This document shows, piece by piece, positions 1-58,265 of a stretch of 64,000 bases of DNA (within the stretch, counting starts at the first letter, position 1; every line of letters starts with the position of its first letter). Source of the stretch: Takakia lepidozioides (lineage: Eukaryota; Plantae; Bryophyta); NCBI GenBank assembly GCA_030704615.1, contig CM060733.1, forward strand, positions 70,556,001 to 70,620,000, written 5' to 3'. The position numbers and the translations under genes were made by a program. Under the pieces are notes generated by a model. It had not been told where the DNA came from and did not search any database. It was given only the letters and a program-made list of their open reading frames with translations.

Positions 1-956
1 TGACAGCTCCATATCCGGAACCTCCATTGTGGAGGAACCTCCAACACGACGGCAAGCTCCAGCATCAAACAGTGCCACTGAAATGGTGCAGGAGAGAAAC
101 AACCCCCTTGATGTGCTTGAGTCCGCATGCCCGACCACGTTTGGCACATAGAACGCACAAGTGTAGGGTCTCGTGTGAAATGTACAGCGATCAGGGCAAC
201 TAATTTTGAGAAGTGCACTTCATCTATATCCAGAGGTGGTGGCCGAACTCCTGCTCCGACTTTCACGGGTTTGATGCGTCCATACGGTCAACCAAAAGCC
301 AAGAACCACAAGTTCTAGTTCTGCGCAGATGATTGTGCCAGATGTGTGTATGGAACTGTGCGTCCTTCCGTAGTGATGAAGCCATCTCCTCCAACCGTTT
401 GGCCCGTGAAGGTGGGAACACATCTCAGCTTTCAGGAGATTGAAATGTTGGAGGAGGCAGGTTTTTCCCTTGCGAGACAACCCCAACTCCATGCATGTGC
501 TACTACTTCTGCGTCCTCCCGGGTCCCCCGGCAAATCCTGACTTGTGGCCAACCAAACGAGATGGAAAGCTCGTTCGGCGTTTCCCTCCAACCGCTGAAC
601 ACTTTGGCAAAGTGGAGTCCGCAAGAATGCTCCAAGCTCGTGTTGGAAGCACCGCGGAAGTACCCAATCCAGGATATGGTCGGGTATTCACAATCATCAC
701 TTCCACATCTGCTGTTCATGACAGGACCTACGACATCACGTTTCCAATTTCCCCAATTGCACATGTCCTGATTTTGTGAATATGCTATCAACCAGTTTGG
801 GCAAGAGAGGTAAATTCATACCCTGCAAACATTTGTATTTCATATTTTTGAAGAGGATGGTTTGCGATCCCAAACGTGATAGCTTTATTCACCATGCCAC
901 TATGAGTTTCAACGAGGTCAATACTCTATTGCAGTGGGATACAACACATGGGTAGC
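1..956 (+). pseudogene. C-terminal part of a SWIM zinc-finger, MULE-associated transposase-like gene (frameshifted)
   Basis: Manual translation of ~745-956 gives NFPNCTCPDF...KFIPCKHLYFIFLKR (SWIM CxC-xn-CxH). The upstream WPVKVGTHLSFQEIEMLEEAGF is homologous to WPIAPGCNLSQNEADAVIAAGF at 49948-50259. Confidence 0.75.
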
Positions 957-1359
957 ATCAACTATGCAATGTGGTATGTGGACGACCATGATTTGAAATG
1001 TGTAATTCACATCAATTCGTCGGCGGTGCAATGATATGGCCTCCAACTATATGGAGTGAGCTCTGAGTGGCATCTTTTAAAAGCACATTTGTCATTGCAC
1101 CGTTCGAAGTCTACATGTCTTGCTGTCGCTATGCACTACAATCATCTTTTGAAGATGATCCTAACTCTCATTGTTATTTGAGGAGGGAGGAAGGTCTTCC
1201 CGTGGCAGCCTTTATGGCGCACACTTTGTGATGATATTTTCTCGTCCTCGTAATTGTAAAAGTGAAACAAGCATTTGTAATTGTACAATATTGGATGCTA
1301 CAATTGTAGGCCTCATGGTAGTCTTGATTCTATTTAGGCAAGATTCCCTGCATTAATTC

Positions 1360-1600
1360 CACGGTCATAGGACCATCCTCGGTTATAGGCGGCGCATGTT
1401 AATGCTGACGTGGCAGATGACGGACAGTGCCACGTCATCATTTGCCGCCACATCAGCATGCTGACATGATGCTCATGCCACGTCAGTGTGGGTGCAGGCT
1501 CACGCCACATCAGCTGGCGTGAGCGTACGCTCACGCCATGTCACTCCTGCGTGAGCGTACGCTCGCGCGCTCACGCGCAACGCTCACGCCATTGCGTCGT
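1360..1600. repeat. Palindromic, G-box-rich transposon subterminal-like region
   Basis: Perfect 24-bp palindrome TGGCGTGAGCGTACGCTCACGCCA at 1515-1538 and several GCCACGTCA/TGACGTGGC motifs. A related array lies at 40790-40890. Confidence 0.55.
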
Positions 1601-1783
1601 TGTTTTCATTCTTGTGTTTGGATCCCCTCCACACCTGCATGCTTGATTGTGCGCCATGCTAGTTTTGTGTGGGCGCTTGATTTTATAGGTGATTGACTCG
1701 GGTTTGATCGCCGATCCAACCCTAGAGCATGATGTCGATGGTGAGGCTGGGCTGATGACCAGTCAGACCATCTTTGTTTCTCC

Positions 1784-2614
1784 TGTGGTGAGGTTGGAGG
1801 TGATGACCAGCCAACCATAGGAGTGCCTGCGGTGGATGCAGGTGCAGGCTATGTTAGGAACCTAGTATTCCAGACCCTAAGCCGCATCAAGTTCTCTACC
1901 CCGACACCTTGTGGAGAGGGGGTTAGGGACATGTTCATGACCAGTTGAGTGTCAGTTTGTCAACACAGAGGTGCCACTAGTTGCTGGGGAAAGTGCCGGT
2001 ACGAGCACTAGCGATTCTAGCGGGTATACGAGATGGGGTGTGGGCGCAGTGCCGAAATCGGGTGACTCATATCCAAGGGGCAAGGAAACTTGCGCCTTCT
2101 TTGGGAGTTCACGTGCTAGTGCACACTTGGCGCGTGCGCGTACTATAACTGCGCTACCGAGGGGGTTGTCTTGTAGTGCGGGCTAACGCGGAAGCTACGT
2201 GTTTCCGTTCACGTACTAGAATTGTGTAACCTCGGGACGAAGTTGTAGTGTGGCTTCGGCGTGTTCCCATACCTCAGGCGTGCATTCCAAAGCGGACCCA
2301 ATTGTAGTGATTGGGGCGCACAGTTGATTCAAGATTATTGTCGTGCGCATACATATCGCTACACAACTACATCGTTGTCCAGAATCACACAACACATGTG
2401 CACACCAAACACTAATCCAACCACTAGTCTGCCATTAGTGCAGCCACTAGTCCATCACTAGTCTGCCACTAGCCACCACTAGTGCAGCCACTAGTCCAAC
2501 CACTAGTCTGCCACTAGCCACCACTAGTGCAGCCACTAGTCCACCACTAGGCTGCCACTAGCCACTACTAGTGCAGCCACTAGTCCATCACTAGGCTGCC
2601 ACTAGTCCATCACA
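1784..2614 (-). repeat. 3' LTR of the DNMT-gypsy element
   Basis: On the minus strand the PPT AGGGGGGCGAT (2615-2625) directly precedes TGTGATGG at 2614. The probable end is ...CCTCACCACA at 1784 (lower boundary less certain). Contains CCACTAG-based tandem repeats at ~2420-2612. Confidence 0.6.
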
Positions 2615-2868
2615 ATCGCCCCCCTAGCTGTCGCTTAGGTCCCTCTAAGTCCAGGTAGCCACAAGATTTGATAGTGGCCATAGCCTCACAAAGTCCTCCA
2701 CCACTGTCCCTACTACACTCAAACTCAATAGATCAAGAGGCCGGGTACAAGAGTTGCCCCATCGTTAGTCGTCGTCTTGCAACCTTTGAGCCTGAGATCT
2801 TGGGTATTGACTCCTATGAGCTTGGCCTCCCATGTCTTGTTAGCTGCCACTAGTCATATCCACTGCCA

Positions 2869-3483
2869 CTATCCCAAGCAGTGTGGACATAACCAATCTC
2901 CATCAGGAACCCTCTCAAGAGGTGGTATCAAGCATCCCATGTGCCAACCTCTTGAGCATCGATCACTCACCAGCATAGTGGCGGCACCACGAGCATGCCC
3001 ACATAGCATGCAACGCAATCGTGCAGGTACCACTGCAAGGTTGGGATCTATCCTCTCATCCACATGTGGAAGGTGACATGGCGCACAATTACGCACATGC
3101 TCCTTCCATACCATGCCATCTCGACCCTCCAGAATCAACACTCCTGAAGGCAACACCTCCCTGACCCTTACAATCACACGTCCTGCTGTGACATCCAAGG
3201 TCGTAGGCGCTGTCTGCTGCAGATACACATAGTCCCCAGGGTGGAAACGCCGAACACTTGGCCGATATCCCCCTCCACGTATAGTGACATACATCAATGT
3301 GTCTCGGTGTTGGGCAATAGCAAGATTCTCAAAAGCCATATGCATGACTCTCTTGAACAATTCTGCCTGATGGGCACATGTTTGTGTCCACACATCCGGA
3401 TCATCAAGGTTGAGGACTACTGTAGCCTCCCTGCGAATAGATGCAGGCAAATCCGGCTCTCGGCCAAAGAGAAGGAAATATGG
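2869..3483 (-). pseudogene. Integrase C-terminus plus PHD finger
   Basis: PYFLLFGR integrase tail, then CMLCG...ML(V)SDRC...WHMGCL.PPL..VP.GDWLCPHC (C4HC3 with one Cys changed to Ser). Confidence 0.88.
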
Positions 3484-4326
3484 CACTACAACAGATCGCG
3501 GTATTTATGACTGTATATATGACTATTCTGCAATCATAAACGGTACATATGACTTCTATGACTGTAAGTCGTGCAAACCAAGTGAATACAATGAGTATAG
3601 GATGGTACGGTCCGGATAATTATAGTCAGATGAACCAAGTGATATCTCTCACTGCAGTCATATATACCATACTACAGTCGCCGCTGCCGCGCCACGTGGC
3701 GAGGCGCAATTGATTAAAAAAATTAAATTAAATTTTTTTTATTAAAAAAAAACAATTGTCAGACGCCTTGTCACACCGCATTGTGCCAGGTGGCATAATG
3801 CATTTTATAATAATGAAAAAACCACATGGCAGCCCATCTAGGGTACCACGTGCTATCCCTAGCTCGCCTACTAACCCTAGGGCCATCTTATCCATTTGAT
3901 TGTACTTAGAAGAGTTTGAACCTGCAACCTCTTTACTATAAGAATTATAGTTCACTACCTGCTAACCAATACACCCATTAATCATTCATGTGATCATTTG
4001 GTGTTTTAATTGTATTATACACACCAAATTACAAAATCTCCAGTAGTCATCATGACTATGTAACCTCATCCATGTACATTGTAGTCATGGAAATGACTAT
4101 GAATGGTGAGCTAAATTTGGTCAATTGCCGTTGACCAGCCTTCCGCCATTCCCAAGCCATGTAGTCATACAGACGACTACTTAGATAGTCATTTATATAA
4201 CTACACTCGTATGAACGACTGCGGGAGGTCAATTTCATATAAAAACATGGTGCAGTCATGGTCAAAGTCAAGAAAACCATGACTACCACGGTTTGGCAGT
4301 CATAACTACCGCGATATGTTGTAGTG
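3484..4326. mobile_element. Non-autonomous CACTA (En/Spm) element inserted in the integrase
   Basis: TIRs CACTACAACAGATCGCGGTA and TACCGCGATATGTTGTAGTG. Near 3-bp TSD (TGG / TGA). ATGACT/AGTCAT subterminal repeats. Removing it restores ...SFSPYFLLFG. Confidence 0.88.
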
Positions 4327-4329
4327 TGA

Positions 4330-4800
4330 TGAGAAGGAGGCAAGTGACGCTTGCTTGCTGAACCTGTAGCTAATGGCTAACCAAGGTACTTGAAGATCTC
4401 AATCTCCTAGGTGTCCCTTTTACAAGCCATACTTGCGCAAACCCCTCTTCACTGTCTGAACCACTCTCTCTGCCAAGCCATTGGCCTCAGGATGATCCCG
4501 AGAAGTGGTACGGTGGTCTATCAAGGCTTTATCACATAAAGGCTGAAACTCCCCCAAGAACTCTTTCCCTTCGTCCGTGAGTTTCGCAGCTGGAGCACCG
4601 AATCGGCTAAGCACACGATCCAGGAATGCATACGTAGCCCCCTCACTAGCCTTGTCAGGCAATGGAACCAACTCAATCCACTTGGAGAAGTGCTCCACCA
4701 TCACCAACACATACCTGTGGTGGCGCATCGTCAGTGGCAACGGCCCTGCGAAGTCAAGACTCCACCTGTAGCCCAATCCCATGATGGGTAATGGATGCAA
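4330..4800 (-). pseudogene. Integrase catalytic core (rve)
   Basis: WSLDFAGP...VEHFSKW...LTDEGKEF...HPEANGLAER (D-D-E triad). Confidence 0.9.
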
Positions 4801-5915
4801 CTATGGTGTAGGGGCGTTGAATGAAGCACGCACCCTGTCACACACCATGCACATAGCCACGAATTGTTGCACCTCTGTTTGCATACCACGCCACCAATAC
4901 TGCCCCTGCAGTAAACTATGAGTGCGTTGCACTCCAAAATGCCCCAACTCCTCATGGGCACGCTGTGTTGGGTGAGGCACGATCCTCACTCGACCATCCT
5001 CCCACACTCGAAGCAGGTGTATCCCCTCCCACTTGAACCTCTTGGCTCGTTGCAGGATCCGATCCCTCTCCTTGGCAGTCACACTAGCTGTCGTGTCTCC
5101 AGTGCGGAGGTAGTCCAACACAACCGAATCCTCATGTATATCTCTGGCACCACCTGGCTCATCACTAGCCTCAGGGTCCTCAGACACTCCATCTACAATC
5201 ATCCCTGTTGTAGGTCCAATCTGACCTCCCGATGCCAAGATACACAAAAAGGCAGATGCATGCCATCCCGACACCATCTCCTCGTCCGTCTCACCATGCC
5301 ACCGAGCTCCAGTGTCATCCTGTTGGCTCGTGCATGGATTGCGACTCAGTCCATCCGCATCCCTATTGACCAAACCCGGTCGATGCGTAACCTGAAAGTC
5401 ATACTCATGGAGTATAAGTGCCCACCGTGCAAGCTTCCCCGTAAGCTTGTCTGACTCCATCAACCACTTGAGTGGCTGGTGATCCGTGACAAGGGTGAAG
5501 AGATTGTCGTATAGATAGCACCTGAAGTGTGCCACGGCCCACACTGCAACTAAGCACTCCCCCTCACACACGAGCTATACTTAGACTCTGCAGCGTTGTT
5601 TGAGCGGCTAGCATAAGCCACTACAAACTCTCTTCCCTCATCATCCACCTGTGTGAGCACCGCTCCAAGCCCCAGCATGCTCCAATCTGTATGCAACTGA
5701 AAAGGACGCCCCCTGATAGGTCGTCTCAAGATGGGCGCCGAGGTCAACCTCGCCTTGAGCTCTTGAAAAGCTCGCTCTTGCTCATCTTCCCACTGCCGCT
5801 CTTGGTCTACCTTGGTCAGCTTGGTTAGAGCCTTTGCAATAGCACTAAATCCCTTGACAAACCGTCTATAGTAGTTTGTCAACCCCATGAAAGCTCGAAC
5901 ACATCTATGGGGCAT
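4801..5915 (-). pseudogene. RT connection, RNase H and integrase HHCC zinc finger (frameshifted)
   Basis: FMGLTNYYRRFV; HTDWS.LGLGAVL; E.LVAVWAV.HF; VTDHQPL; ADGLSR; HEELGH...CMVC. Confidence 0.88.
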
Positions 5916-6667
5916 GGAATCTGTGCAATGGCCTCTACCTTAGTCTGCTGCACCCCCAATCCTCCAGGATATATCATGTGGCCCAGATACTCAATCTGGT
6001 TGTGGAAGAACTGGCACTTCCCCGGATGTAATTTCAATTCGTGCGCTCTCAAGCGCTCAAACACCACCTGAAGGTGTCTCTCGTGCTCCTCCATCGTAGC
6101 ACTAAAGATGATGATGTCATCTATATAGCACCGAGCAAAGTCCACCCCTGCTAGAATCCTGTCCATGACTCTCTAGAATTCTGTAAGAGCGTTCTTAAGC
6201 CCGAATGGCAAGAACCGCCACTGATATAGGCAATCCTTCCCGTGCTCATTGATCCCCCAGAATGTCGTCTTCTGCTTGTCCGCCTCCTTGATCGGCAACT
6301 GGTGATATCCGGACCGCAAGTCTAACGTGCTAAAGACCTTGGCATGCCCAATGGCATCAAAGATCTCCTCAGGTGTGGGCATGGCATACTTATCGGACTT
6401 GGTCTGATGATTTACAGGCCGGTAGTCACCGCACATACGTCTCTCCGTCCAATTGCCATAGACATCCTTCTTGGCTGGCATCACCGTGGCTAAACCATAC
6501 TCTCCACCAGAGAGCTCCACCAAACCAGCCTCCCAGAGATCTTGAGTCCTCATCTGAATCAAAGACCTCTCTATGTCACTGTATTTGTAGGGTCTCCGAA
6601 AGATTGGCGTGTCGGTGGCCAACTCAATACGAATCTCCTGACCCTTCAGTGCTCCCAAATCCTTCAA
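5879..6667 (-). pseudogene. Gypsy reverse transcriptase
   Basis: RMCGDYRPVN, FSTLDLRSGYHQ, LPFGLKNA, YIDDII. One in-frame TAG at 6173-6175. Confidence 0.93.
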
Positions 6668-6826
6668 ACTAAAGGCAAAGCAATTCCTGTAAGCCCTCAG
6701 GATCCGCCGTATACGTCATCTCTCTCCTCCAGTGACAATGGGTCCAATGTCAGGCTCCCAATTGCCCTCCGTAACTGCAACCTTAAGTCCAGCAGACTTA
6801 GAGGTAGAGGACGCGTCCCGTGGTTG

Positions 6827-8125
6827 CTATGCCACAACCTCTTGAGCAGTACTCCTTGCCTGCTTAGTCAATGACAAGGCCTCATCCTGCCCCATCATCT
6901 CATCCTTGAGGACCTCCTCAACCCGAGAAGAATCCCCAACCTCATCCATCACAGCCGCCTTGGCTGCCAACTCCCTCTGAACCTCGAGCACCTCCCATGT
7001 GTGCCATGGATGTCTACACCCCGTGGTCCTCACCGGCTCGCCCCCACTCACTGCCTGTACCACCTCGGTAGGCAGAGAGACCGTTAAAGGAAGTGCACTC
7101 CGCACTCTACGTTGCTCAGCCATAGCCAAGCTGATAATCCAGGTCAAGCAATTTAGATCCATCACTTGCCCCAACACCTGACGATGTGATGCCTCAAAAA
7201 GAGAAGGCACCGCCGTGGTCCCAGTGGAAAAACCCATAGCCCGCTCTCGCTCGTCGGCATTAGGCTCCACTAACTGCTGCAACTGAGCATCCCACAGGAG
7301 GCCAGGTCCACTATCCCAGAAAGCATGCGATCATGGGAAGCTGAGCAGTGTAGGTAGTGTTACTCGTGGTCGACCCACCTTGTTGACTACTGCCAAAGGC
7401 GGACGGTCATCGTGTCTCACACCCTGAGACTGCCTCCCCGTGTCCAAGATGTTATCAACTGTGAGGTGTGTTGGCCGCTGCATCCCATCAAATGCACGCT
7501 TGAGCAGTGCGGGTGGCATCAAGTTAGTCCACCATAGCCGTGGACGATGAGCCCGTGACCCCACTGTAGCTGCATCCAGCAACACTACTGACCCAAGCCA
7601 CGACCAGACTTGATGCACACTGGCCATCACCCTGGCCCGAGAATCGCCCATCACTGGCACATTCTCCAAGATGTATGCTGGAGATACAGCTTGATGAAGC
7701 TGTAAGTGGCGCAAAACCCGCACCATCTCCCAAAACAGACCCGACCTCGAGTCTCACAATCCATTGTCATGCCCGGCTGATCAATGCCCTTGGCAGGGCC
7801 AACCTGCCACTACTAGATCAATGGAGCCAACCCGCTCCAAATCCTGCGCCCCCAGCAACGAAATGTCTGCTGGCAAGGCCTGCTGATATCCACAAACTGC
7901 AGACACCGACAACAATTCAGGGTACCGCTGCACCAAGTGAGCACCATGGTGTAGGGAGACGCGTCGTGCAGTCTCATCCCTCTCCACATACAGGTAACGC
8001 CAAACTCGTACACCTGCCTGTAGAACAGCAGCCAATCCGGTGCTGATCCCGCCAAACAAATCCAGAAGGCAAATGCCTTCATCTGGACATTGCCACACGA
8101 TTGGTGTGGTGTCCAATGGAGACAA
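6827..8125 (-). pseudogene. DNMT3-like C5 cytosine DNA methyltransferase domain within pol
   Basis: Motif I LDLFGGISTG; II YVERD; IV DLVVAGWPCQG; GL*DSRSGLF; VI YILENV; VIII LLDAATVGSRAHRPRLWWTN; IX/X ERERAMGF...RQVLG. All are in the RT reading frame and broken only by TGA/TAG stops. Confidence 0.9.
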
Positions 8126-8436
8126 CTGAGGTGGACCCGGTGCAATCCCCGCACCGTCCTCCTCTCCTGACGGTACAAAAGCCTCTACCTAGGCTTGTTA
8201 CACCCGTCGATCAGCAACCCGCTGCAAATCCTTGCTCGAGCCCCACAATGGAGTGTGAGCAACCATGGCAGACAACTCCGCCATACCATACATGTCATCC
8301 TGCTCTCCCAGAGGTGACACATCCTGTGAATGAGTGTTGCCATCCAACAACTCTCCAGGCCAAGTCACTGCAGCTGTGAATGCTGCTAGTGTTGGCATCT
8401 TGCCTCGCTGGGCAACCGCAACTCCTCCTATGAACG

Positions 8437-9267
8437 TCACAAGGAGCTGCACACGCCAGCCCTCCCCTGACTGCCATCCAGGCCTATAGGAAGCTGACTC
8501 CTCCCAAAAATCAAGGTGAAGCCCATGGGGTACAACACTGCCCCACCAACAATGACATTGTACGAGACCGCATTTGTCACAATGGCCTTGGCTCTCATCA
8601 CTGAGCCATCTAGCTCACGCCATGTCATGCCCCGAGCCTGCTCTGATCCTCCCAGAGATGTCTGTATCTGGAAAGGGCACGGCTCCATATCCGCCTCCGT
8701 GAGGCCCAAGCCTGCAATAGCAGCTCTGTTCAACATCAATGGCTGAGCTCCCGAGTCCAACAAGACCCGTAGTGGCCGGTACCTCTTGCCTACCGGTCCA
8801 CTCAAACAGAAAATGTCATCCTGGTTGTCTAACATGACAACTCCAGGTGTCACCATGGCGCGCTCAATGGTTGGCCTAGCTGGTAGCTCCATCAACCTGG
8901 CAGCTGCAGCTTGCCATGGCACCGCCATGGCAGTCTTGACCCTCACATCTGAGGATCCCTCCGGCACTACACCTCCCACTATCTCCGCAGAAGATGAAGT
9001 AACCTCCCCACTCTCACAAAGTGTAGCTGCCAGCCTGAATACCTCAGCTGGTCTTACCCCCGGCGTTGCAATCATGGTAGCCGAGAACAATGGAGCCTGG
9101 CACACAGTTGTGGCCACCCCCAACAGCACACTAGCTGCCGTAGCCTTGGCAACAGTAGGTAGTGGTGCTGCCTGTGTAGCTCTCCCCAATGGCATAGTAA
9201 CCTCCGCCTCGGTAACAGTCGGGCGAGAACTAGGTGCCATGGACGGCGTCGACACTGTATCTGCCAA
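8437..9267 (-). pseudogene. Retroviral-type aspartic protease with upstream linker
   Basis: VLLDSGA catalytic motif followed by the YNVIVG flap-like motif. Confidence 0.75.
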
Positions 9268-9550
9268 TGTGAATGACTAAGGAAGCCTGGCTTGATGGCT
9301 TGCCTCCCCACGCTGTGGATCCAACTCCACCTCTGCACCCCGTGGCTCAGGAACTCGTGCTGCTCCTCGAGTCACTGCCATAGCTGACTCCACTTGCACT
9401 AGTGGTAGTCCTGCCCCGCACATAGTGGTAGTGGTAGTGGGAAGCACAACATTTGGAAACCATTTCATTTATAAACAAAATTTGTACAACACAAGTTTTT
9501 TTTTAATTTAATTTTTTTAATCAATTGCACCTCGCCACGTGGCGCGGCAG

Positions 9551-9829
9551 CTGTGACTGGCTGTGTGAAACTGTGACGGGCTGTGACTGGTTGTGACGAC
9601 TGTGACGGGCTGTGTTGGCTGTGTCGGCTGTGACGACTGTGTTGGCTGTGTTGGCTGTGTCGGCTGTGACGGGCTGTGATGGCTGTGTCGGCTGTGACGG
9701 GCTGTGTAACCCCTCTCTACAGTGCGCTGTTATCACCCCTAAGGCTCCTGTTGGTCTCAGTCTGTGCAAAAATTAAGGGTACTCCTCAGATCCCGTAAAA
9801 ATGTCTAAGTCCCTGACAGTCCTCTAACA
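9551..9829 (-). repeat. Truncated 3' LTR (second LTR family) with GGCTGTG(AC) microsatellite
   Basis: Minus-strand PPT GAGAGGGGAAGGGG(TAA) precedes TGTTAGAGG at 9829. Homologous to the LTR starting at 59504 (+). Confidence 0.75.
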
Positions 9830-9868
9830 TTACCCCTTCCCCTCTCAAAAAGCCGTGTCCTCACGGTT

Positions 9869-12238
9869 TTACTGTTTGGGATTAGCAAACCTTTGTGAGT
9901 GAGCACCCTTCTGACGTTGAGAGTCTCGTGAAGGACTTTGTGTGCGAGCCCGAGGTCTGCCACTGGTTGACGGAGATGATTGAACACTACCTGGATATGT
10001 AAGGCCCTCTGGAGGCTGATATCGAGGTAATCTTTCAGGCATAGGAGACCCCCGTCGCTTCTTTTCTTCCATCTGAATTGCATAGTCTTCTCCCATGTCA
10101 AAAGAATCCCTCGAAGAAACAGTTGTATCAGAATCCTCATCGCCTCTCAGGTGTTTTGGTTGTCGAACTTTTGGTGGAATCCTCTGGGGCATACAATGTT
10201 GTCCTACCATGTCTGGAAGTTTATATTTTAAAACTTGGTATAAACGCTGAATTGCAAAATTGGTGAAGACACTGAGCTCCTTGTCTGTCCAGGTGAGTGG
10301 GGTACCAATGACTTGTGACTTGTTCAAGTATTTCCATGCCACATGTGCCTTAGAGAAAATATCATCAATGCCGAATTTCTGTGTTGACAAATTGTTCCAG
10401 GCTGCCTGAAACCATGAACGAATTTGACAATCATTTTGCATCATAACTTTTGGCTCATATAGGTACATATGAGGTGGCACTGAAGGTAAGACCCAATGAT
10501 CCCCACTGGAATAACTCAGAAAGCGCGCTTGCATTTTTTGCTGCTCAATGTGATAACGTACCAGAAAACAAGCAGCGTAGTATAATTCACATCCCATGAC
10601 AATACTCGCTACCTCCTTGGTCTTGGTATAAATGAATCCATGTACAACTTGGAAGACAATTAATTCCCTCAACATTGTACCTGCCTCATGCCAGTATTGT
10701 GCAAAGTGATGATCTTCAATTGGTCGATTGTTCGGAAGAACTTTAGTCCTAGTTGCCACTGGCAGCCAAATGCGCATGATTTGGTAGTAATGTGCAAATG
10801 ACTGCGGAGGACTAAATTCTTTCCAAGCCAAAATCCAACATGATGGGAATTTGGTTGAAGGGCAGAATCATAGCCCTACTGTACTCCCTTGCAGCTGGAG
10901 TTTTAGGTGGGTTAAAAGCAGCATTGCCCCATACCTCAGACTGTGGTGGCTGTGGTGTAGTTGTAGTAACAACAGGGTCAGCTATTGGCACAGTGACTTG
11001 CTGTGATGTTGGTGGCACTGGCTCTTGTACCATTGGCATCTCCTGCACCTCCTGTGAAGAAGACTGAAAAGCTAAAGTTCTCGCTTTTAAATAAGAAGCC
11101 ATTAGCTGTTCATCAGGTACACAGACTCTCTTGTCGATATTTGAAGTGAGGTCCTCCACTTGAGTCTGCAGGCCGTCTATATCCTCTTGTAACTCCGCTA
11201 TCCTACTATAGACATTGTCTATAGTAGTTGTGGCAATGTTCTGCACTTGCAGCCTGAGCTCATTCATCTCGCTTTGGGTGAGCTTTTGTGGTGCTTTGCC
11301 CTCCATGGCCCTTGTGCTAACCAGACCTGCATAAGGTGGTTATCCACCAAGTTGCTTGTGGTTCCTCTGAGAGTGTGCTCCTCTCTTTGTTTGTACACAT
11401 CTAACTGCTGTTGTAAAGCCTCCATGCGCTTCGCATGAGGTTCAACCAAATTCGCATAGGCAGCAGCCAGATTATTGGCTTCCTTCCAAGCTTTGTTAGC
11501 CACAGAGAGTTCATTTCTATTGGCCATGACCGTTTGTTGCAACTCCAGGATGTGCCTCTCTTGGTCAGCTTCAACCTGCCTGTATTGCTTGAAAGTATCC
11601 TCATTGCGACAGATTGTATTCTTCATGTCGACAATGAGTTTAATTTGCTCAACATTCTGTGCTTCTGCCTTCATACTTTTTTCCGCTTGACTGTTTATTT
11701 CTATTGTAGATTGGTCAAGCATAGTTGTGAGTGTAGCACATTGGATGGCCATCCTGTCATGCACTGTCTGCAACTCCGTATGTAGTGCATTTACTTGTTG
11801 CAACTTGCTTTCATGCTTCACCTGCATTTGGTATAGCTGTTGCTTATGTGCTTCGTGCAACTGGTCTTGCGCGAGGTCTGCCTCAATCAATTGTTCCTTG
11901 GTCAATTGCAAAGCCGCTTCTGTATTTTCCAAGTCCTGCTGCATCTTGAGAGTGACCTCCTCATCGACCTTGTTTGCACACTCAGTGGCTAGTCGAGCCT
12001 CAAACTCCTTCCTGAGTTCCTCTCTCAAGGCTGTCAATTGGGTAGTTGGAACATGGGATTTGACATAAGTCCCCAACAAATTAAGTGTCCTGCCTATGGA
12101 ACTCATCAGCATTGCCTGTTGAGGGTCATCATGGTGAGGTTGCTGCTGTTCCTCCTGATCCTCAACCGTGTGATGTCTCACGAACCATTCAGGCCATTGT
12201 CCCACCGGATTTTCTTCCTGAACCACATCATCCATCAC
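9869..12238 (-). pseudogene. Large accessory ORF (coiled-coil N-terminus, unknown C-terminal domain) just upstream of the PPT of an LTR element; two frameshifts
   Basis: Three overlapping ORFs (324, 164 and 320 aa), with a Q/E/L heptad-rich N-terminus, ending ~25 bp before the PPT. Confidence 0.6.
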
Positions 12239-12761
12239 CGGTGCTGCAGTGTCTTGACATTCTACCTGTGGTATAGTGTGAATTACATTGGTATAGACAA
12301 TGTGTGTGGGCTTTCCAGATTCCCTCTAGACAGCCCTTCACACAAGCATCAAGCTGCTGTATTATCTGCCCATCAGATAGATCCCAACAGGGCCAGAGAT
12401 TTCATAAGCTGTTGAACGGAGGTGCAGGGACTATGTTTATAATGTTCCTGAAGAGGGTCGCTCGCTAATGAGAATACTAACACTGACATGCTCTCTTTGA
12501 GCACTGCAACGTGAATGTATCAAAGAGAGCCAGCCTGGTCTTCATGGAAAACACCTCTAGACTCCAGATTAACCTTGAGACGGGTACTTTTTAGCCTACA
12601 AATAGCTTGCCAACTGCGTTAAGAAGCGTGATGCCGTGCTAGCGTGATGCCGTACTCATAAGATGTTTTTTGTCAGGTCCTCACCAACTAAGAATCATCA
12701 TCTACTTATAAAGTCTGCAAATGGTCATAGCTGAACATAAATGTCGTTATATTATTGATGG

Positions 12762-13557
12762 TTGCAGAATGTATCCACAATGTCAAAAGGGCAGAAGGCA
12801 AGCAGTTCTATGCCGAAGGAACAGAATACAAGCATTTCAATGCCCAAAGAAAAGAACACAAGCGGTTCAACCCAGGACGTTCCATTTGAAGTTAAATGTA
12901 CCCAAACTTACGAGCAGTTTTCATGCAACGTGCATCATGCGGTAAACGTAGGCAACACTTGGAAACGCTTTCCACCTTCCACTAATTTTTACAGTACATT
13001 GTGGAACGACAATGCTAACTCCGAGGAAATAGTATTATTCCTCGGAATTTGCAAATTTTCGTACTTAACGGAAATTGGAAATCTTAACTCTGCCCCATTT
13101 GCACATGAGATGCACCAAGCAAAATTTTCTATTCAGTTAGAGGAGAGCTTTCATCATTACGAGTACACCAGTAAGATTAATGACTGGAGAGCCTATTGGC
13201 AGAAGGCTTCCAGGGATTTAGAATGGGTGGGTGGAGAAAATTTGAATTTCACCAAAAAAGTTACAAAATCCAAAGCAAAAAAATCTGATCTGTCAAATTT
13301 GACTACAAACAAACGGCAGAAAGTAAATGAAAGTGAACTCTATAATACAATTGAGGTCATCAATGACAAAAACGAGACGATCAATGGATTGTCTATTAGT
13401 ACGGGAGACTTTGTTGTCGTCAAATGTAACATAAGATATTGGCAGAATCTTTGAGAGAAGAAACACGGCACTTCTTTCCAAATGCTAGGAGTCAAGCTTT
13501 TTGCCAAAGCTCCTTTACACATAGAAGATCCGGAGTATATGAAAACTGTAGCTTGGT
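12762..13557 (+). pseudogene. Unknown protein (degenerate, possibly spliced)
   Basis: 230-aa ORF. The frame continues past a TGA to a GTAAAT donor-like site at ~13556. No family recognised. Confidence 0.35.
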
Positions 13558-14577
13558 AAATTTTTGAACACATTCTGTAAAATATTGAAAACAATTATCA
13601 ATGTACAGACAATTTTATATATATATCAAGAACGAGTATTTATCCTATCTCTTTGTATTTGCATAGTAAGCAATGGTTTAAAGTGCTTATAGCACTGGAA
13701 ATGCACCTCCAGCCGATGTGCAAAAAATTCATCGAATCAGTATTTACAGGTTTCTCATCATACATTATGTTTTTATTTCATTATCGGTTTCACATCATCA
13801 ATGGATAAATCGATTGGTATTAGCCAAGCCTGTAACTCAAAATGATGATTGACTATTTTGAATTACCAAAATTCACTCGTGATTATAATTGTTCAATAAT
13901 TGTGATTTAACTGCACATGAAGTATTAATCCAAATTAGAATTTCAAAACATGACAAGGTAGGAAGGGATGTAAGTGAACGATAGTTAAAGATAAGCCTCT
14001 CCATTTTTTTCAAAAAATAAACCTCGAAAGATTAAAAAAAATCCAGGATTTTCCTCATTTTTTAGGTAAGCTTAACTCACATCACAATTATCTCATTTCA
14101 GTAACATACTTGATGATCCTTGAGTTTTTGTCCCAGTTGTTGGAAGTGATTGGTTAATATAGAAAGATAGAAATATGACAAAAAATTGTATTTCTTAATC
14201 TATAGGTGACCGTGGCTCGGCGGTCCGATGTGTCCCAATAGAGTTAAGAGAATCGCATCCACAAGCATGGACAAACATCTCCCTCCACTTTATGATCACT
14301 TTTGCTCCTCCGTGAGTGCGGTTCCTTGGCTTCCTGTAGTCTTCGGACTTCGTTGCGTGGCACTGCCAACGTGTGCAAAGGTGTTTGTTTTGGGAGCGAG
14401 AAGTTGTCGATTTTTAATCGGGTCAGTCCCACAGCTGTTCAACCTCTATTCACCGTTCCATTTGTCGTTTTAAGATCTCATGTGACCCGTTTTTGCAGAA
14501 AATATCAAGATATCATCCAGACACATCTATTATATATTTTTTTCTCCCATCCCCTGTAGTGGGCAAAGGTTTATATA

Positions 14578-15150
14578 ATGTCAGGGACTGCAAACTCAGA
14601 TACTGGGCCGGGGTCGTTGTCTAGGGGTCGGAGGAAGAGAAAACATGCCCACGAGCGAGATAGCCAGGTCAACAAGCAACACTATCCGGGACCAGAGGCT
14701 TTAGACAGGGTTAAAAGAAATATATTTGATTATTTCAAAGAAAAAGACATTATGAGGCTGCAAAGTGTTTATGTCCGGCATGGACACGAGGTGTTTCGTA
14801 TTTTTCAGCAAAATATGGAGAGGAGAATGAGAGAGGGTTTGGCTGAAGATCAGTGGACGGAGGATATGAACAAGCCGAAATTCTTGCATTGGCTCGAGAG
14901 TAGGGCAAAAGACACCACGTGGAATTTGAGGCAGGTAATGAGGACATGGAAGGATAGAACAACCCAAGGTCGGGTGCCTAGCTGGGAAACCGAGTTATAC
15001 CAACTTGTCGAGTGGTGGGCGCATTCATCAAGCGCCAATGCACATCACCGGACTAGGTTAGTCCCTTGGAAAGCGGCATCATCAAGCGGGGGAAGCACAA
15101 TAAGTCTTATTTACGTAAACACAAGTGCTCAGGTCCAACAACTTGGCCCC
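14578..15150 (+). pseudogene. Kinase-like gene, 5' half (split by CACTA insertion)
   Basis: The ORF ends in ...QQLGP at the TSD and joins in frame to YKERGYARVRKC at 22727. Confidence 0.8.
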
Positions 15151-18100
15151 CACTAGAAGAAAAACGTGGCATAACCACTGGCCCTTTAACCACTACTGTC
15201 TTTTCCCACTCAATAAACCACTAGTAACCACTTGCCAGTGGTTAATCCCGATGAAACGCCACGGTGGCATCACAGACAGTGGTTGGAAGTGGTTTGAACC
15301 ACTTAGTATTCCACGTGTAATAATTTGTTTTTATTTTTTATTTTTTATTTGATAATATATTTTAATTAATATATATTATTTTCCACGTGGATAGGTGCAG
15401 TGGTAGATTGTGAGTGGTTATAGACACCTCAGTGATGGGAAGTGGTCGAAACCACTTGCTACTCCACGTGTATTAATTCAAATTTTATTTATGATTTATG
15501 ATTTGAAAATCTATTTTAATTAATATAATATAATATTCCACGTGGACGGGGACAGTGCACGTTGATCTTGAGTGGTTAAAGACACCTTATTGATTTGCAC
15601 CACTTTGACAGTGATGGAGAGTGGGTGGTGAAAGACACTGCAGTAATTGGAACCACAATTCTAGTGGTCGCGCATGAGTGGTTGCCTACACAATAGTGAT
15701 TGGTACCACTTCTGTGGTGATATATGAAAAACTTTAAGTGGTTTGTGTACCTGTGACAGATTTGAAAAACAGTCAAGTGTTCATACTGTACACTACAACA
15801 CACCTCGGTTTTTTCAACCTGTCAATTTGACGATTTTTTTTACTGTTGTCATTTTTTTTTCCCGACCATTTCATAGTAAAAATATATATAATATTAAAAC
15901 ATTCAACATAGTACACGATAGTGAAATAGTTTCACTATTTCAGGGCCATAATTGCGAGAGACTTTGACTACCTAAATCAACTTATTGACACAACCATTTA
16001 AACCATGACACGTGCATCTGCAATATATTTATTATTTATATATTAATGTGGATAAGTAAGTAGTAAAAAGTTTGACTATACTTTCACCGGAATTTTATAC
16101 TTTCCACATTGTGGTGTATGGGTTTAGTTAGTACTCCACTGCAAACGGAATAAATCATGAACTTATGAAATCTGCCCTCGGGAAGACGAAGAGGTGGTCG
16201 TCGCACTTTGCAATGTATACCGAATGCAATGCAAGCTTAACAGTCCTCATATTATGATTGAAGGGAGTCAAACTAAGTGTGGCCATATCAGTGCAGGGAC
16301 ATAAATACGAATCATTCAACATTGTAAAATGAAAACGGGGTACAGCTAGTACATGGTACCTTTAAAACTTGTTGCAGAGTTCAAAAGGTTTTTAAAAAAT
16401 TACAAAAGTTGCTTATAGGGTTTGTAAAAAGTTAAAAAAATTAAAAAGTTGCCATCCCGGTAGCCTTGAACAGAGGGCTGGGACTTAGAGCAGTGAGCGG
16501 CAAGGAGGGAGAGAGAGAGGGCTGCAACTTAGAGCGAGTGAGCGGGAGGGAGGGCAAACATGGGAGGCCCGCAGTTGGAGCAACCTTCGCATCTGAAGCA
16601 AGCGACAAACACTAGGGTATGTGTGCGAGGAGGTGTCCGCTGAGAGCTCGCCCTTGGGGAGAGTCAGTTTGGTCTTAGGTCGAGGACAATGCGGTGAGGG
16701 CATCTTCTTCTTCGACCTATTTCAGCCTGTTTTGCGCTCTCATCATACTCAGCCCTGAGTTTGCAACACGGAGCAGAGCTGGCATGAGTTTTTAAAGATC
16801 CTTCATGATGGTGGGACAACCGCAATCACAAGCGCACCCCGTTCCATCGTTGCATGGGAGGCAGTTTCGCACCATTGCTACTCTGTTCCCCCTCTGTGTG
16901 CTGGCCGAGACTGGGCCCACAACCGTCTGCTCCCTCCCAATCTTCCTGCCACATCCAGTCGATTCCGAGTTTGTTTTTGGTAGTCAGAAGTTGGAAGAAA
17001 ATCGTTGTAGTGTTGGACTTGAGGGAGTAGGAACGATTGAATTGAAGTGAGATGAGTAGGAAGGAGCCTGCATTGGGGACTGGCAAAAAGGGGAATGTAG
17101 AGCATCTGTAGGGTGGATGTGATTTTGGGTGCTTGGAAGAGGCGAATCAGAGAACTAGACAAGGAGAGCTTTGGACCTGGCTCATTTGGTGAGCCCAGAG
17201 GGTCTTCCACGTGATAACGTCAGAAGGAAGGCCATGTTTGGGCCAGTGAAAGAGGCGGTTAAGAGTAGAGCTGCTGGCAACAAGTAGGTCGAATCAAACG
17301 TGGGGTACGTTGTTGTGGAACTCGTGCTCGGGTGTGAAGCCCAGTTAGACGTTCAAGTGAGTTGGGCGTCATCGTTACGAATCTCTAAGGCTTGAGTACG
17401 CGGGCTGGAGGTTTTATGGATAATCGGCACGTACTCTGCAGAGGTAATCCAGTCTATATCCCATTCCGGTTGACTGTCTCCTCTACAGTGCTGCCCTGTC
17501 ATTTCAGCTGTCTGAAATCTCTTACATAGATTTTGTCAAGGGACCTCTTTCCGAGTCTGCAGATCTAGTCTTAACTCACTGGTTTTTTCTTAATGTACGA
17601 TGTTATCTCCCCGTCCTCTAGGAAGCCTATTGCCATTGGGTGGACTTGATACGGGAGTACATTAATGTCTTTGTGACTAAATGCCAGCCTTGTGACCTCA
17701 TGTCTTTGTTTGTTTCGACCTGAAGCGCTTGCTCCAGGTAAGGTAGTGCATTGGATTTAGTTGGAAAGCTTGGGGCCTTTCCCTCTTCAGAATATGCCTA
17801 CACGGGCCATTCCCTGCAACTCCCTGGAGTGTGATCTCTGAATGGTAACAAGCGGACCCCTACCGCTTGGGGGCAGCCCCTCTGCCCAATTGGGCGGTCG
17901 TATGCTCTGTCTAGCATACTCGGCACTTGGGCTCGGGTTGGTTCCCATGCTTAAACTTATGGCCTGCGACAACAATCAAATCTTAGCTCCTATCAACATC
18001 AACACTCCTCAGGCTGATTCCTGGGAATTGGTTACTTATGGCAAATCTAGGGCTTCATGTGTAGTTTTTGGGGTGAATCCCAGGATGGACGCCATGTCCT

Positions 18101-18254: not shown

Positions 18255-18790
18255 TTGTTTGACAATTGTGAAATTATCAACAAGGGTTTGAGGTACAAGC
18301 ATAGTATCTGGCTAAAGCTGAAACTGAAGGGCGGCATGAGTATGAAGGACCTCTTTGTGGGTTGTGTTTACATGCCCACAGATGGGTCCCTTAGTGCTGA
18401 TGCAGACAAAGCCTTCGAAGATGTAAAGCTAGTCTGTGCTTCGTTCCTTGCCAAAGATTAGGTGATCTTATTGGGTGATTTCAATGCCCGGGTGGGTAAA
18501 GGTCTCCATCAGGATGATATCATTGGGCCTTTTGGTGAGGACGAGCTGAACTCTAATGGTAGACGGTTAATTAATTGTCTGGAAGAGCTTCAGCTTATGG
18601 CCTTGAACAATAGGGCAAAAGGTGAACAAGTGCAGTGGACTCGTGAGAAATCCCAAACTGGGGAACGTTCCATTGTGGATTATATCATAATGGACAAAAA
18701 TTTGTTTCCCCAGAGTGCCAATGTGTTGATCGACAAAACTAATATTGGTACCTCTGACCACTTCCTGTTTTGGACTGAGATCAAAAGGTG
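18255..18790 (+). pseudogene. LINE AP-endonuclease fragment
   Basis: VGCVYMP...ILLGDFNARVG...NSNGRRL...WT...SIVDYII...TSDHF. Confidence 0.85.
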
Positions 18791-18959
18791 TTTTCCCAAC
18801 CCAAAAGATCTATGTGAAGTCGAAAGAGCAGTGGATTCTTGGGATATAATGTTGGCAGGATTTACCAAGCATGGGTGTGGTAGGAATGCTTTGGAGACCT
18901 ATGAGCAAATGATGGGCAAAGGGTACCACCAACAGTCTGGAGGCTGTGATGGCTGCATA

Positions 18960-21600: not shown

Positions 21601-22726
21601 AGAGAAGAACATGAAGAGGGCTTACAATTTCATTCGCCCGGGCGTAGACATTGCTGGCAATGAGAAGAAGGCAGGAAAGCAGTTCAGTGTTCCTAGCATG
21701 CATGTGGAGACGCCGTGTAGAAATTAGGCTCAGACTTTTATCATGGCTGGATTTTGTTGACAGTGTTCCAGCACTTACTCTCTGGGATTCTATTTTATTT
21801 TGTGGAGCTTGAATCCCCAATGGTACTTCTTTCACTACACTAGTGGTATGTGTTCCTCTAGTCATGTTCCTAATCACTTGCACGCCACTGTAATAGTGGT
21901 ATATAACTTAAAATTGTAAGAGTAGCCAAATATACACAATTGCCTCCATTACCACTCCTGTAGTGGTATAAGTAATCACATATATATTACTGTATTAGTG
22001 GTATGAATTCCTCCAATGGTATTTTTAATCACTTACACACCACTCTGTTAGTAATCATTCCAATCCATAGTTCCCACTCAGAGAGACACCATGGATGATT
22101 CAAACAGCTTACATACCACTATGTGGGTAATCATTCCAATGACCTGCTGAGAGATGTCATCCACTCACATAACCACGGTTTGAGTGATATTGTATATTCT
22201 CAGTTTTCATAGAATGACTCTGTCAGTCATTTCGCGATCACTCAACAAGTGGTTTCGGAAGTCATTGAATTTTTCACTCCATCCATTTCGTAGCACCGAC
22301 ACATGACACGTGTCCATGCTGAGAGTGTCGTCACTTGTCAACATAATCTCCAATATCATCCACGGATCACCGACTTCCACGTGTCCACTAGAAAACGGAA
22401 GTGGTTACTTTACCACTATGACACGTCAGTTTACCACTGTGACACGTCAGAAGTGGTTGGTTTACCTCAGTGACACGTCAGAGTGGTGAGTTTACACGTC
22501 ACAGTGGTTAATTTACCACTGTGACATGTCAGCGAACAGGCGGACCCGGACGTGAGTGGTTCGAACCACTGTCCTTAACCACTGATGCCACGTAATGTCT
22601 TTTACCACTCACTTGTCCTAATCCACTGGTTCTTCATCACTCTGGGGCCAGAGTGGTTTAGTGTCTTTTAGCACTCAAAATGAGTGGTTAACAGAGTGGT
22701 TATTCCGCATTTTTCTTCTAGTGCCC

Positions 22727-24069: not shown

Positions 24070-24436
24070 AACCCCGACCATATCTTGCAGCATCACTAGG
24101 GGACTCAAACTCTCTCCGAAGAGGCAAAGCCGGGGGGGTTGGAAACCTTTATTATCTTTTTCCTTTTTATTTTTCCTCTCTCCCATATCCTCTAAGGTGC
24201 AGAAAATATCCAATCTTTCCCCGCCAATATACTACCGTAGGCTCAAAGTCCTTCCAAGGCTTGTTACATTAATAGAACAATCCACCTTGCACCGACCCTA
24301 TCTTGCAGCATCACTAGGAGATTCGAGCCCAGTCCGGTGGGGCAGAATGGCGGATTTGAAACAATTTTTATCTGGGGACTCGAACTCTCTCCGAAGAACC
24401 AGAACCGGAGGGGTTTGAAACCTTTATTATCTTTTC
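24070..24436 (-). repeat. Inverted copy of the 35.2-37.6 kb tandem array units
   Basis: Contains TATCTTGCAGCATCACTAGG and CTCTCTCCGAAGA, the reverse complement of the array unit. Confidence 0.85.
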
Positions 24437-56486: not shown

Positions 56487-56796
56487 TACATCACCATTTT
56501 CTTCGGTTGCGGAACCTATTACCGTGAAATTCGGCGCCATTTTTACAGATGTCGGTCGGAATTTCCATGAGCGCAAGAGAAAATATCATGAGCACGGCTC
56601 CCAAAACTTCAATTTCAGCTTCAAACAAAAAATATTATATTATTATTGTTCTGACACATTCCATTAAAATAATGTTTTTAATGTTTTTTAATTCCAAAAT
56701 TTGAACTTCTGCTCATGAAAACCGATTGTCTTATTACTCCGCTCATGCCGCTCATGCTCATGAAATAGCTAACCTCAAGTCTAGCCCCGCGAGAAT

Positions 56797-58080
56797 CCTA
56801 TCCATGATCCTCTGAAACTCTGCAGGAGCATTCTTCAACCCAAACGGTAAGAACCGCCATTGGTACAAATAATCTTTCCCATGCTGGTCAATCCCCCAGA
56901 ATGCCGTCTTCTGCTTGTCAGCCTCTTTGAGTGGCAACTGGTGGTAACCAGATCGGAACTAAATGTACTAAACACCTTCGCATGCCCAATGGCATCAAAG
57001 ATTTCCTCCGGAGTTGGCATGGCATATCATCGGACTTAGTTTAACGATTCACATGGCGGTAATCCCCACACATCCTTCTTTCTGTCCAATTGCCATAGAT
57101 ATCTTTCTTAGCTGGCATCACCGTTGCCGAGTCATACTCCCCGCCTGACAACTCCATCAATCCAGCTTTGAACAACTCCATAGTCTCCGACTAGATCGAA
57201 GACCTCTCCATGTCACTATACCTGTAGGGCCTTCGAAAAATTGGTGTGTCATGCCAAATCAATACGAATCTCCTGGCCCTTCAAACTCTCGAAATCCTTC
57301 AAACCGAAAATAAAGCAATTTCTATAAGCCCTTAGAAATCGTTGGATCCTCAGTCTCTCTCCTCCGGTGACTGTAGGTCCAACATCGGGTTCCCAATGGT
57401 CCTCAGTGATTGCAACCTTGGGTACACTAGCTTGGAGATAGGAGACGCATCTTTTGGTTGCTAGATAGCAACCTCTTGGGCCTTGTCCGCCCACCCTGAC
57501 TGTGGCGTAGCCTCAGTATATGGCTCTCCCCACTCCTCATATTGTTGCTTAAGAGATCCAATGACTCTCTCTTTGCGCATCTCATCCCACATTTGCCATG
57601 GGTGTTTATACCCCATGATCCGGTGCTCGCCCCCACTCACTGCCTCAACCATCCCGGTTGGCAAAGAGGATACAATATCCAATGGAAGTGCAAAAGTAGC
57701 CATCAATGCTTGCAATCTCCGTTGCTCAGCCATGCATAAGCCAATGACCCATGTCAAGCAATTTAGATCCATTGCTTAACCCAACACCTGTCGGCGTGAT
57801 GCCTCTGACAGAGCTGGCACAGCTGTGGTGGCCGTGGCAAACCCCATTGCCCGCTCTCTCTTATCCGCATTGGGCTCCACCAATTGCTGTAGCGCACTAT
57901 CCCAAATCAACCCTGGACCATTGTCTCAAAAAGCATGAGACGAGGGAAAGCCCACAAGTGTAGGCAAGGCCGCACGTGGTTGCCCCACTTGATTAACCAC
58001 CGCCAAAGGTAGACGGTCATCATGTCGCACCCTCTGTGGTTGCCTCCCTTGGTCCAAAATGCCCTCAACCGTGAGATTGA
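56797..58080 (-). mobile_element. Second, diverged DNMT-gypsy copy (DNMT C-terminus, linker, RT N-terminus)
   Basis: MPTPEEIFDAIGHAKVFST; RAYRNCF; MDLNCLTW; EPNAD.RERAMG. Colinear with ~6150-7460. Confidence 0.88.
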
Positions 58081-58265
58081 GCGGAGGCAGAGGGCCAAAT
58101 CGAGTGCCCCAAAAAAACTACTTTCCTATCGTTGAGCTTGTGCTCTTGCAAAAAAAGAATATTATTGGAGACAAGCAAGGAAGAGGCCCAACTAGGAATT
58201 CTACTCCTCTTAGGCACGGATGCTTTGGAGCCTATTCCCTTAATGTTCCATGATGACAATTTCCA
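58080..58265 (-). pseudogene. LINE AP-endonuclease N-terminus fragment
   Basis: SWNIKG...ILFLQEHKL. Confidence 0.65.

Follow-up and report, generated by a model that had tools for sequence, protein, structure and literature searches.

The window, that is, the whole stretch of DNA analysed here, comprises 64,000 nt of contig CM060733.1 (positions 70,556,001 to 70,620,000 of the forward strand; GenBank assembly GCA_030704615.1, deposited as Takakia lepidozioides). On its minus strand, between 9400 and 2339, lies what is, judging from the sequence, very probably a dead, 5′-truncated copy from a streptophyte lineage of Gypsy-Dnmt3 retrotransposons, i.e., Gypsy elements with a DNMT3-like cytosine methyltransferase (DNMT) in their coding region. 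Our best reading of the whole, to which we give a probability of roughly 0.6, is that of a dead Gypsy-Dnmt3 copy from a family in which a Gag-protease-DNMT3 frame closes at a conserved stop codon, where readthrough would be likely, and in which the enzyme would methylate the element's complementary DNA (cDNA). An earlier note, made from the letters of the window alone, had placed the element at 5879..8452; a Gypsy element with the DNMT between protease (PR) and reverse transcriptase (RT) is indeed there, but it extends from about 9400 to 2339. The features are the following.

2339..9400, minus strand: Gypsy-Dnmt3 copy, decayed, gag and 5′ repeat gone (TBLASTN of relatives, 9396-2878; conserved repeat end at 2339).
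8512..9396, minus strand: end of the Gag-PR linker and aspartic protease (LLDSG), with 48% identity to residues 436-732 of Marchantia protein P0125.
7121..8074, minus strand: DNMT3-like C5 cytosine methyltransferase domain (PF00145; DNMT3A nearest in the PDB by sequence and by the fold of a relative).
6821..6829, minus strand: conserved in-frame stop TAG CAA CCA (CARYYA context), end of the first open reading frame (ORF1) and candidate readthrough site, from the family comparison.
5900..6760, minus strand: reverse transcriptase (PF00078, E = 6.8e-30), with stops at 6716-6718 and 6173-6175 and a frameshift near 5895.
5401..5900, minus strand: RNase H (RH; PF17919, E = 2e-23; PF17917, E = 5.9e-16), with a frameshift near 5568.
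4330..4965, minus strand: zinc finger and core of the integrase (INT; PF17921, E = 3.7e-14; PF00665, E = 6.3e-12), with stops at 4801-4803, 4420-4422 and 4399-4401.
3484..4329, no strand assigned: foreign insertion of 846 bp inside the integrase gene (contigs of four out of four runs join 3483 to 4330, and the homology of relatives breaks there).
2869..3483, minus strand: C-terminal part of the integrase with a PHD finger (about 2878-3012; PF00628, E = 1.3e-8).
2339..2628, minus strand: purine tract (from 2628), then the B terminal repeat ending in ...CACGACA at 2339, a single-B 3′ end (tract and end match those of relatives).
56777..58084, minus strand: second, diverged fragment of the family, with the DNMT end, the same TAG CAA CCA stop and the RT start (71-76% nucleotide identity to the first copy).

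The DDE core of the integrase and the order PR-RT-RH-INT identify the element as Ty3/Gypsy. The six ORFs that the earlier note had singled out (8198-8452, 7781-8125, 7331-7726, 6827-7282, 6173-6667 and 5879-6166) do share one minus-strand frame. The protease, thought to lie within them, is separated from them by a frameshift at about 8512-8539; its Pfam stretch (about 8611-8778) is one frame off the DNMT and matches PF13650 with E = 0.0065, below the cut-off. In all, the copy has accumulated three frameshifts (near 8525, 5895 and 5568), ten further stops and the 846-bp insertion. The segments 9440-12325 and 1-2338, tried as further parts of the element, were rejected: they do not match the Gag or the A repeat of relatives, and the end motif stands at 2339. 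Of the contigs of run X1, 113,529 align to 1-16000 and 1129 to just 181 bp of the element, which implies many diverged copies in the genome; only distinct contigs are counted here, and summed contig depth gives no copy number. Together with the second fragment in the window, these contigs place the DNMT in more than one copy.

Read with X at the stops, 6992-8125 matches PF00145 with E = 6.7e-12 (45.9 bits; cut-off 22), a check that the earlier note had proposed for the reconstructed domain; the RT follows in this same frame. The C5-methyltransferase motifs that it had named are all present, in unrearranged order: I (LDLFGG), IV (GWPCQG), VI (ENV), VIII (RAHRPRLWWTN) and IX/X (ERERAMGF...RQVLG). 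The catalytic Cys lies at about 7793-7795 and ENV at about 7658-7666, while stops at 7781-7783, 7754-7756 and 7331-7333 break the domain. Its proposed likeness to DNMT3 was borne out among solved proteins. A single-sequence ranking of the PDB puts human DNMT3A first (E = 2e-8), followed by DNMT3B and then by DRM (1e-3) and HhaI (2e-3); a profile search gives 7e-23 for DNMT3A, 4e-11 for DRM and 1e-6 for HhaI. The predicted fold of the relative P0003 (pLDDT 79) matches DNMT3A with E = 1e-19 and a TM-score of 0.80 by target, the identity between a relative's DNMT and DNMT3A being 22%. Motif order and nearest matches thus assign the window domain to the DNMT3 family, and an unrearranged DNMT3-type enzyme within a Gypsy coding region is what characterises KnitGypsy-Dnmt3 of the alga Klebsormidium nitens.

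The ratio of non-synonymous to synonymous substitution rates (dN/dS) of the DNMT, another check put forward earlier, is 0.05-0.16 between lineages in six of 13 pairs, under the Ka/Ks limit of 0.2 that applies to KnitGypsy. It is 0.08 between the two window copies and 0.12 (interval 0.06-0.21) in the unsaturated pair L079/L070. Weighing against selection, dS is saturated in four of the 13 pairs, and dN/dS reaches 0.53-0.66 in three pairs of close, decayed copies. The low values indicate that the DNMT has been under purifying selection between lineages.

Named relatives, with identities up to about 70%, occur in Marchantia polymorpha, Calypogeia fissa, Riccia sorocarpa and four Sphagnum species. 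The annotated genomes of these bryophytes make it a solid conclusion from sequence that land plants carry a Gypsy-Dnmt3 family, an extension of the known range that the earlier note had anticipated. In Marchantia, P0131 and P0140 have PF00145 joined to RT and RNase H, and P0143 of Sphagnum fallax unites Gag, PR, DNMT, RT and integrase in one protein. The order GAG-PR-DNMT-RT-RH-INT-PHD is found in every sufficiently long locus among the best 80 of 124 metagenome loci. A profile search yielded 579 clusters with E < 1e-30, 20 of which were looked up; one is from Klebsormidium nitens (GAQ93235.1) and five are from Closterium. The relatives include no named fern, lycophyte, hornwort or seed plant, which does not amount to absence, as about 8000 candidates were scored per search and most matches are unnamed. 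Five Marchantia genes (P0125, P0227, P0228, P0234 and P0235), located on chromosomes 4, 5 and V and annotated as hypothetical proteins, encode near-identical Gag-PR-DNMT products; several Marchantia family genes specify 1278-1281 residues and fall into one 90%-identity cluster. The near-identical copies point to recent spread.

A sister group with another order, RT-RH-DNMT-INT-PHD, occurs in the green algae Chromochloris, Monoraphidium, Haematococcus and Chlamydomonas eustigma, and 112 proteins show this order in full. In the DNMT tree (70 chosen rows), a single branch with support of 99/92 separates the two domain-order groups, and the RT tree (37 rows) is split into the same two groups at 95/79. 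The window DNMT falls within a nine-row clade (100/99) with Marchantia, Calypogeia and Sphagnum; its identity to bryophyte-type proteins is 65-72%, as against 33-39% to those of Closterium and Klebsormidium. A phage-type methyltransferase from a viral collection (L081) was too distant and was left out of the tree. The chlorophyte group (P0145, P0149, P0258-P0371 and others) is large, at least six of its members also having a G-patch (PF01585). One protein labelled as from a Minisyncoccia bacterium (P0348) groups with Monoraphidium in the RT tree and is likely to be algal DNA in a binned genome.

Neither this sister lineage nor the PHD finger figured in the earlier account, which also lacked the split terminal repeats found in relatives. 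These repeats are arranged as A1-ORFs-B1-A2-B2 or A1-ORFs-B; the former is complete in L065 and L073 and partial in L007, L039, L042, L045/46 and L048/49. The relatives start with TGTCATG and finish with CAYGACA. Among six loci with both ends recognisable, a 4-bp target duplication is perfect in four and matches in three of four bases in the other two; a seventh locus, which has no 5′ motif, stands outside this count. The window copy keeps the 3′ CA end only. Its B repeat aligns locally to that of L065 with a score of 41; none of 200 shuffles scored above 27. The layout differs from that of ordinary Gypsy long terminal repeats in that B1 is what follows the purine tract, and in that A1 is not followed by the TGG with which a tRNA primer site would open. 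The B1/A2 joint is a near-palindrome with a 2-base spacer (...GACA-GC-TGTC...). Integration from a one- or two-repeat circle opened at the B/A joint could generate both the A-ORFs-B and the A-ORFs-B-A-B forms. This circle route is offered as an idea only: recombination between B copies would yield the same single-B form, and opening a circle at an internal joint is, to our knowledge, an unusual route for a DDE integrase.

The ORFs of the window element had been taken to be separated by nonsense codons alone. For the other stops this holds; the stop at 6827-6829, in contrast, is kept across the family. We compared the 55 loci (53 fetched, two from the window) in which the end of the DNMT and the start of the RT are both present. 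In 52 of them, TAG or TAA followed by CAR-YY stands 150-240 bases before the RT anchor, in 51 cases in the RT frame; the pattern is missing in L051, L064 and L078. By comparison, the most stop-prone codon inside the DNMT is a stop in 17 out of 79. A stop and context conserved to this degree are not a product of decay, and the DNMT therefore ends a Gag-PR-DNMT ORF. Hence, the single ancestral PR-DNMT-RT-RH-INT polyprotein of the earlier note, with the DNMT “inside pol”, is not supported for the land-plant clade.

Several observations suggest how the downstream part is expressed. In L079, open frames of 1369 and 1047 residues are divided by one TAG CAG TTA. Across all seven linker lengths seen, the RT stays in the frame of the DNMT. 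Furthermore, 36 long proteins are GAG-PR-DNMT without RT, six of which end about 80 residues past the enzyme. The full CARYYA follows the stop in both window copies and in L025, L028, L070, L079 and L080. In tobacco mosaic virus (TMV), CAR YYA after UAG is the readthrough signal, and the short product is about tenfold more abundant (PMC2754532). A TMV-like context at the junction would place the enzyme on the abundant side of a recoding site. On these grounds, RT-RH-INT-PHD is probably reached by readthrough of the conserved stop.

We propose that translation of ORF1 would yield Gag-PR-DNMT, with few ribosomes passing the stop to add RT-RH-INT-PHD, so that the DNMT would be packaged into the particle in Gag-like amounts. 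The element's protease would then release the domains, the enzyme included, and the packaged enzyme would methylate new cDNA inside the particle or close to it, no later than at insertion. Nearest to the PHD finger in a structure-database search are those of CHD4, KDM5A/B, ATXR5 and PHF21A; the PHD fingers of CHD4, KDM5, ATXR5 and PHF21A we take to be readers of unmethylated H3K4. The finger could thus steer insertion to chromatin without H3K4 methylation, away from active promoters, reader (PHD) and writer (DNMT) travelling together as in animal DNMT3A. The likely benefit would be that a new copy resembles host heterochromatin or escapes an attack on naked DNA.

Part of the evidence speaks against readthrough or limits its reach. 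The strict CARYYA is present in only seven of the 52 loci, and a large Sphagnum-like subfamily mostly has CAA CCC and then ATG, which would allow reinitiation there. The 55 loci belong mostly to one subfamily and represent 43 distinct contexts from about six independent lineages. P0438, P0502 and the Closterium proteins P0468 and P0503 have no stop at all, and the review file of the 2018 paper (de Mendoza et al., PMC5890265) puts DNMT and RT in one ORF. The green-algal enzyme follows RNase H, and bulk synthesis is thus not required everywhere. The downstream ORF could instead be reached by splicing or reinitiation, the TAG being a 3′ splice acceptor or a plain stop: in the same large subfamily, a T-rich run precedes the stop and CAA CCC ATG follows it, and Ogre elements are known to splice out stops between protease and RT. 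We consider this decidedly unlikely. TAA stands at 16 of the 52 junctions, where the stop is kept and the AG lost; splicing needs no retention of the frame, yet every linker length preserves it; the window copy and L079 have no early ATG, their first in-frame Met after the stop coming 92 and 117 codons on, respectively; and CARYYA is matched in the most divergent lineages. Contig data from run X1 are weak on this point: the 1129 contigs have no variant of at least 5% over 6820-6831, but the control stop at 6716-6718, near the end of the stretch, has none either, while the decay stop at 6173-6175 differs in most contigs. A contig from one run, guessed to be of RNA, spans the junction stop and shows no joint; it says nothing about splicing or expression. 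As to the role of the enzyme, we give even odds to cDNA methylation as the main one. The Klebsormidium domain gave no methylation in yeast, a result its authors call inconclusive (PMC5890265), and the window holds no sequence sign of self-methylation: CpG depletion is 0.53 in the element vs. 0.59 in the whole window, and neither CpG nor CHG depletion distinguishes the element from neighbouring DNA. The lack of extra CpG loss would suit an enzyme whose target is chromosomal DNA, in trans or where the element inserts (to silence itself and so limit harm, or to mark the locus), or one retained for DNA binding, with cDNA secondary. Free enzyme is expected from bulk synthesis with Gag, self-restraint is among the options of the 2018 paper (PMC5890265), and in many algal members WPC has drifted to WEC (GWECQD in 68 of 201 catalytic motifs). 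We consider such a role rather unlikely. An enzyme acting in trans is a shared good, which single elements should lose; yet purifying selection has maintained it as part of the polyprotein in hosts ranging from green algae to mosses, with the catalytic Cys and ENV retained (ENV-like in 292 of 311 domains).

The history of the family can also be read in more than one way. The trees are unrooted and have no outgroup and no host DNMT3 or DRM rows, a weakness for any claim of common descent. The position of the enzyme differs between chlorophyte and streptophyte groups, and the rows of Marchantia (a liverwort) and Sphagnum (a moss) are nearer to each other than to Calypogeia (a liverwort), as might follow from separate DNMT3 captures in the two groups or from horizontal transfer to bryophytes, with no single old lineage. 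We regard this as unlikely: the integrase-PHD tail is common to both groups, their DNMTs are about 39% identical to each other vs. 22% to DNMT3A, and the DNMT and RT trees divide the groups alike. A single DNMT3 capture for both green lineages is therefore the likely course. Under a wider scenario, a single Gypsy lineage, dating back to the origin of green plants, would carry a PHD and DNMT3 kit, arranged RH-DNMT-INT in green algae, with the DNMT moved onto Gag in streptophytes, made in bulk through a leaky stop in land plants, methylating its own cDNA and using circle-route repeats; as a whole, we hold it to be improbable. It is very improbable that the window itself is DNA of a charophyte alga or a contaminant and the copy silent on land plants. 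Some algae may have PLS-type pentatricopeptide repeat (PPR) genes, a point that the literature consulted did not confirm. The DNMT is much closer to bryophyte-type proteins than to those of Closterium and Klebsormidium; the gap-free stretch that holds the element also has several PLS-type PPR pieces, including an E motif; and contigs of the run with the element also cover flanking low-depth DNA (13098-13761) without differences. The presence of the family in land plants is in any case independent of the window and rests on named genomes. The embryophyte host, which the earlier note had deduced from the PPR genes, holds as far as tested, the DNMT tree being the better evidence; the host of the window is likely to be a non-seed land plant.

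The remainder of the window is rich in repeats. A different high-copy repeat (1-2338) adjoins the 3′ end of the element, 37 contigs of X1 leaving the window at 2338; it has a short ORF (722-955, plus strand) with a Cys/His pattern that is presumably SWIM-like. Another high-copy element (9440-12325, minus strand) stands where the gag of the DNMT element would be expected, with coiled-coil ORFs without a convincing Pfam match and, at about 9830, a purine run that gives way to TG; its 10-bp tandem repeats are seen again at 59504-59803. A 61-bp stretch of it (9440-9500) is identical to 44253-44313, close to a chromovirus remnant with integrase core, SH3 and chromodomain (44390-45393). Helitron pieces (29079-34708 and 58776-59441) include a PIF1 helicase, a Helitron N-terminal domain and an ORF for a Ulp1-type protease; the larger piece has an observed/expected CpG ratio of 1.11 vs. 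0.59 for the window. Repeated, broken PLS-type PPR pieces (24368-27318, 47887-48929 and 18462-19034), one with an E motif (E = 1.3e-14) and one joined to an ORF for an endonuclease of the long interspersed nuclear element (LINE) type, look like duplicated pseudogene fragments. At 22622-23641, an ORF of 339 residues has a weak kinase-like match (E = 6.7e-6), below the cut-off. A scaffold gap of 500 N (37642-38141) leaves the element and the main PPR cluster on one side.

Why a transposon should carry an enzyme that hosts use for silencing has been a standing question since 2018, when the sole Gypsy example, present in few copies and inactive in yeast, was that of an alga. The presence of the family in Marchantia, a model with genetics and methylomes, makes the question testable in a plant, and from the conserved stop one would expect the enzyme to be among the main proteins of the particle. 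In gene sets of bryophytes and algae, DNMT counts are inflated by family copies, which could moreover contribute methylation that the host does not control.

The closest described system is KnitGypsy-Dnmt3 of Klebsormidium nitens, in which an intronless Dnmt3-like enzyme, maintained by purifying selection, accompanies Gypsy domains (de Mendoza et al. 2018, PMC5890265). It has DIRS-like repeats (legend to Figure 4c of that paper), and split repeats also occur in the relatives of the window family. The K. nitens protein GAQ93235.1 (P0491) has the PR-DNMT order of the window family, is 36% identical, and is parted from the chlorophytes, together with the window family, by the 99/92 branch; the tree is unrooted, and the published KnitGypsy sequences are outside this comparison. 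Closterium proteins agree with the window family in domain order as well. This protein and its sister end 12 residues past the enzyme, the K. nitens record being marked partial. In KnitGypsy-Dnmt3, the DNMT is part of the Pol ORF (PMC5890265), whereas in the land-plant clade a conserved stop with a readthrough context intervenes in the same frame. The land-plant family further differs in having a PHD finger at the C-terminus (a term that does not occur in the text of PMC5890265), in its host, a land plant and not an alga, and in its very high copy number, as compared with few copies in K. nitens.

Retrotransposon-borne cytosine methyltransferases are also known from Symbiodinium. Of its two elements, SymbioDIRS-Dnmt3 and SymbioLINE-Dnmt, the former methylates CG de novo in yeast; their backbones are DIRS and LINE, without a DDE integrase, and the authors regard them as separate captures (PMC5890265). 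EpiLTRs of Cymbomonas and Euglena are, as here, LTR elements with a DNA methyltransferase and a chromatin reader, but the former is related to DNMT4 and is accompanied by an adenine methyltransferase and a chromodomain; their authors set them apart from “streptophytes (Gypsy-DNMT3)” (bioRxiv 10.64898/2026.05.21.726589), and a later paper likewise speaks of “streptophytes” for Gypsy-DNMT3 (PMC12344493). Fusions of transposable elements with PHD fingers are already known in general: Gypsy-7a_cRei of Chlamydomonas has a Gypsy polyprotein with a PHD finger, a proposed guide of insertion, and, unlike the window family, lists no methyltransferase (bioRxiv 10.1101/2022.06.16.496473, in the parts consulted). 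For the chromovirus, OTA, Phygy and Selgy clades, the passages of PMC6317226 consulted mention neither a homeodomain finger nor a methyltransferase, and thus do not bear out the presence of a PHD finger in Selgy elements. PpDNMT3b, which methylates CG and CHH sites de novo (Yaari et al. 2019, PMC6453930), is likewise an unrearranged DNMT3 of non-flowering plants, but it is a cellular gene and not part of a retroelement.

In a literature search that left subscription papers mostly out of reach, we found no paper describing a Gypsy-DNMT3 of land plants or chlorophytes, its pairing with a PHD finger or the stop at the junction; the trees and supplements of later papers and the main supplement of the 2018 paper may already contain bryophyte or chlorophyte sequences. 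Compared with these systems, the kind of element is already known; what is new is its range in land plants, together with the conserved stop after the enzyme and the sister group in green algae, which bear on its mechanism and age.

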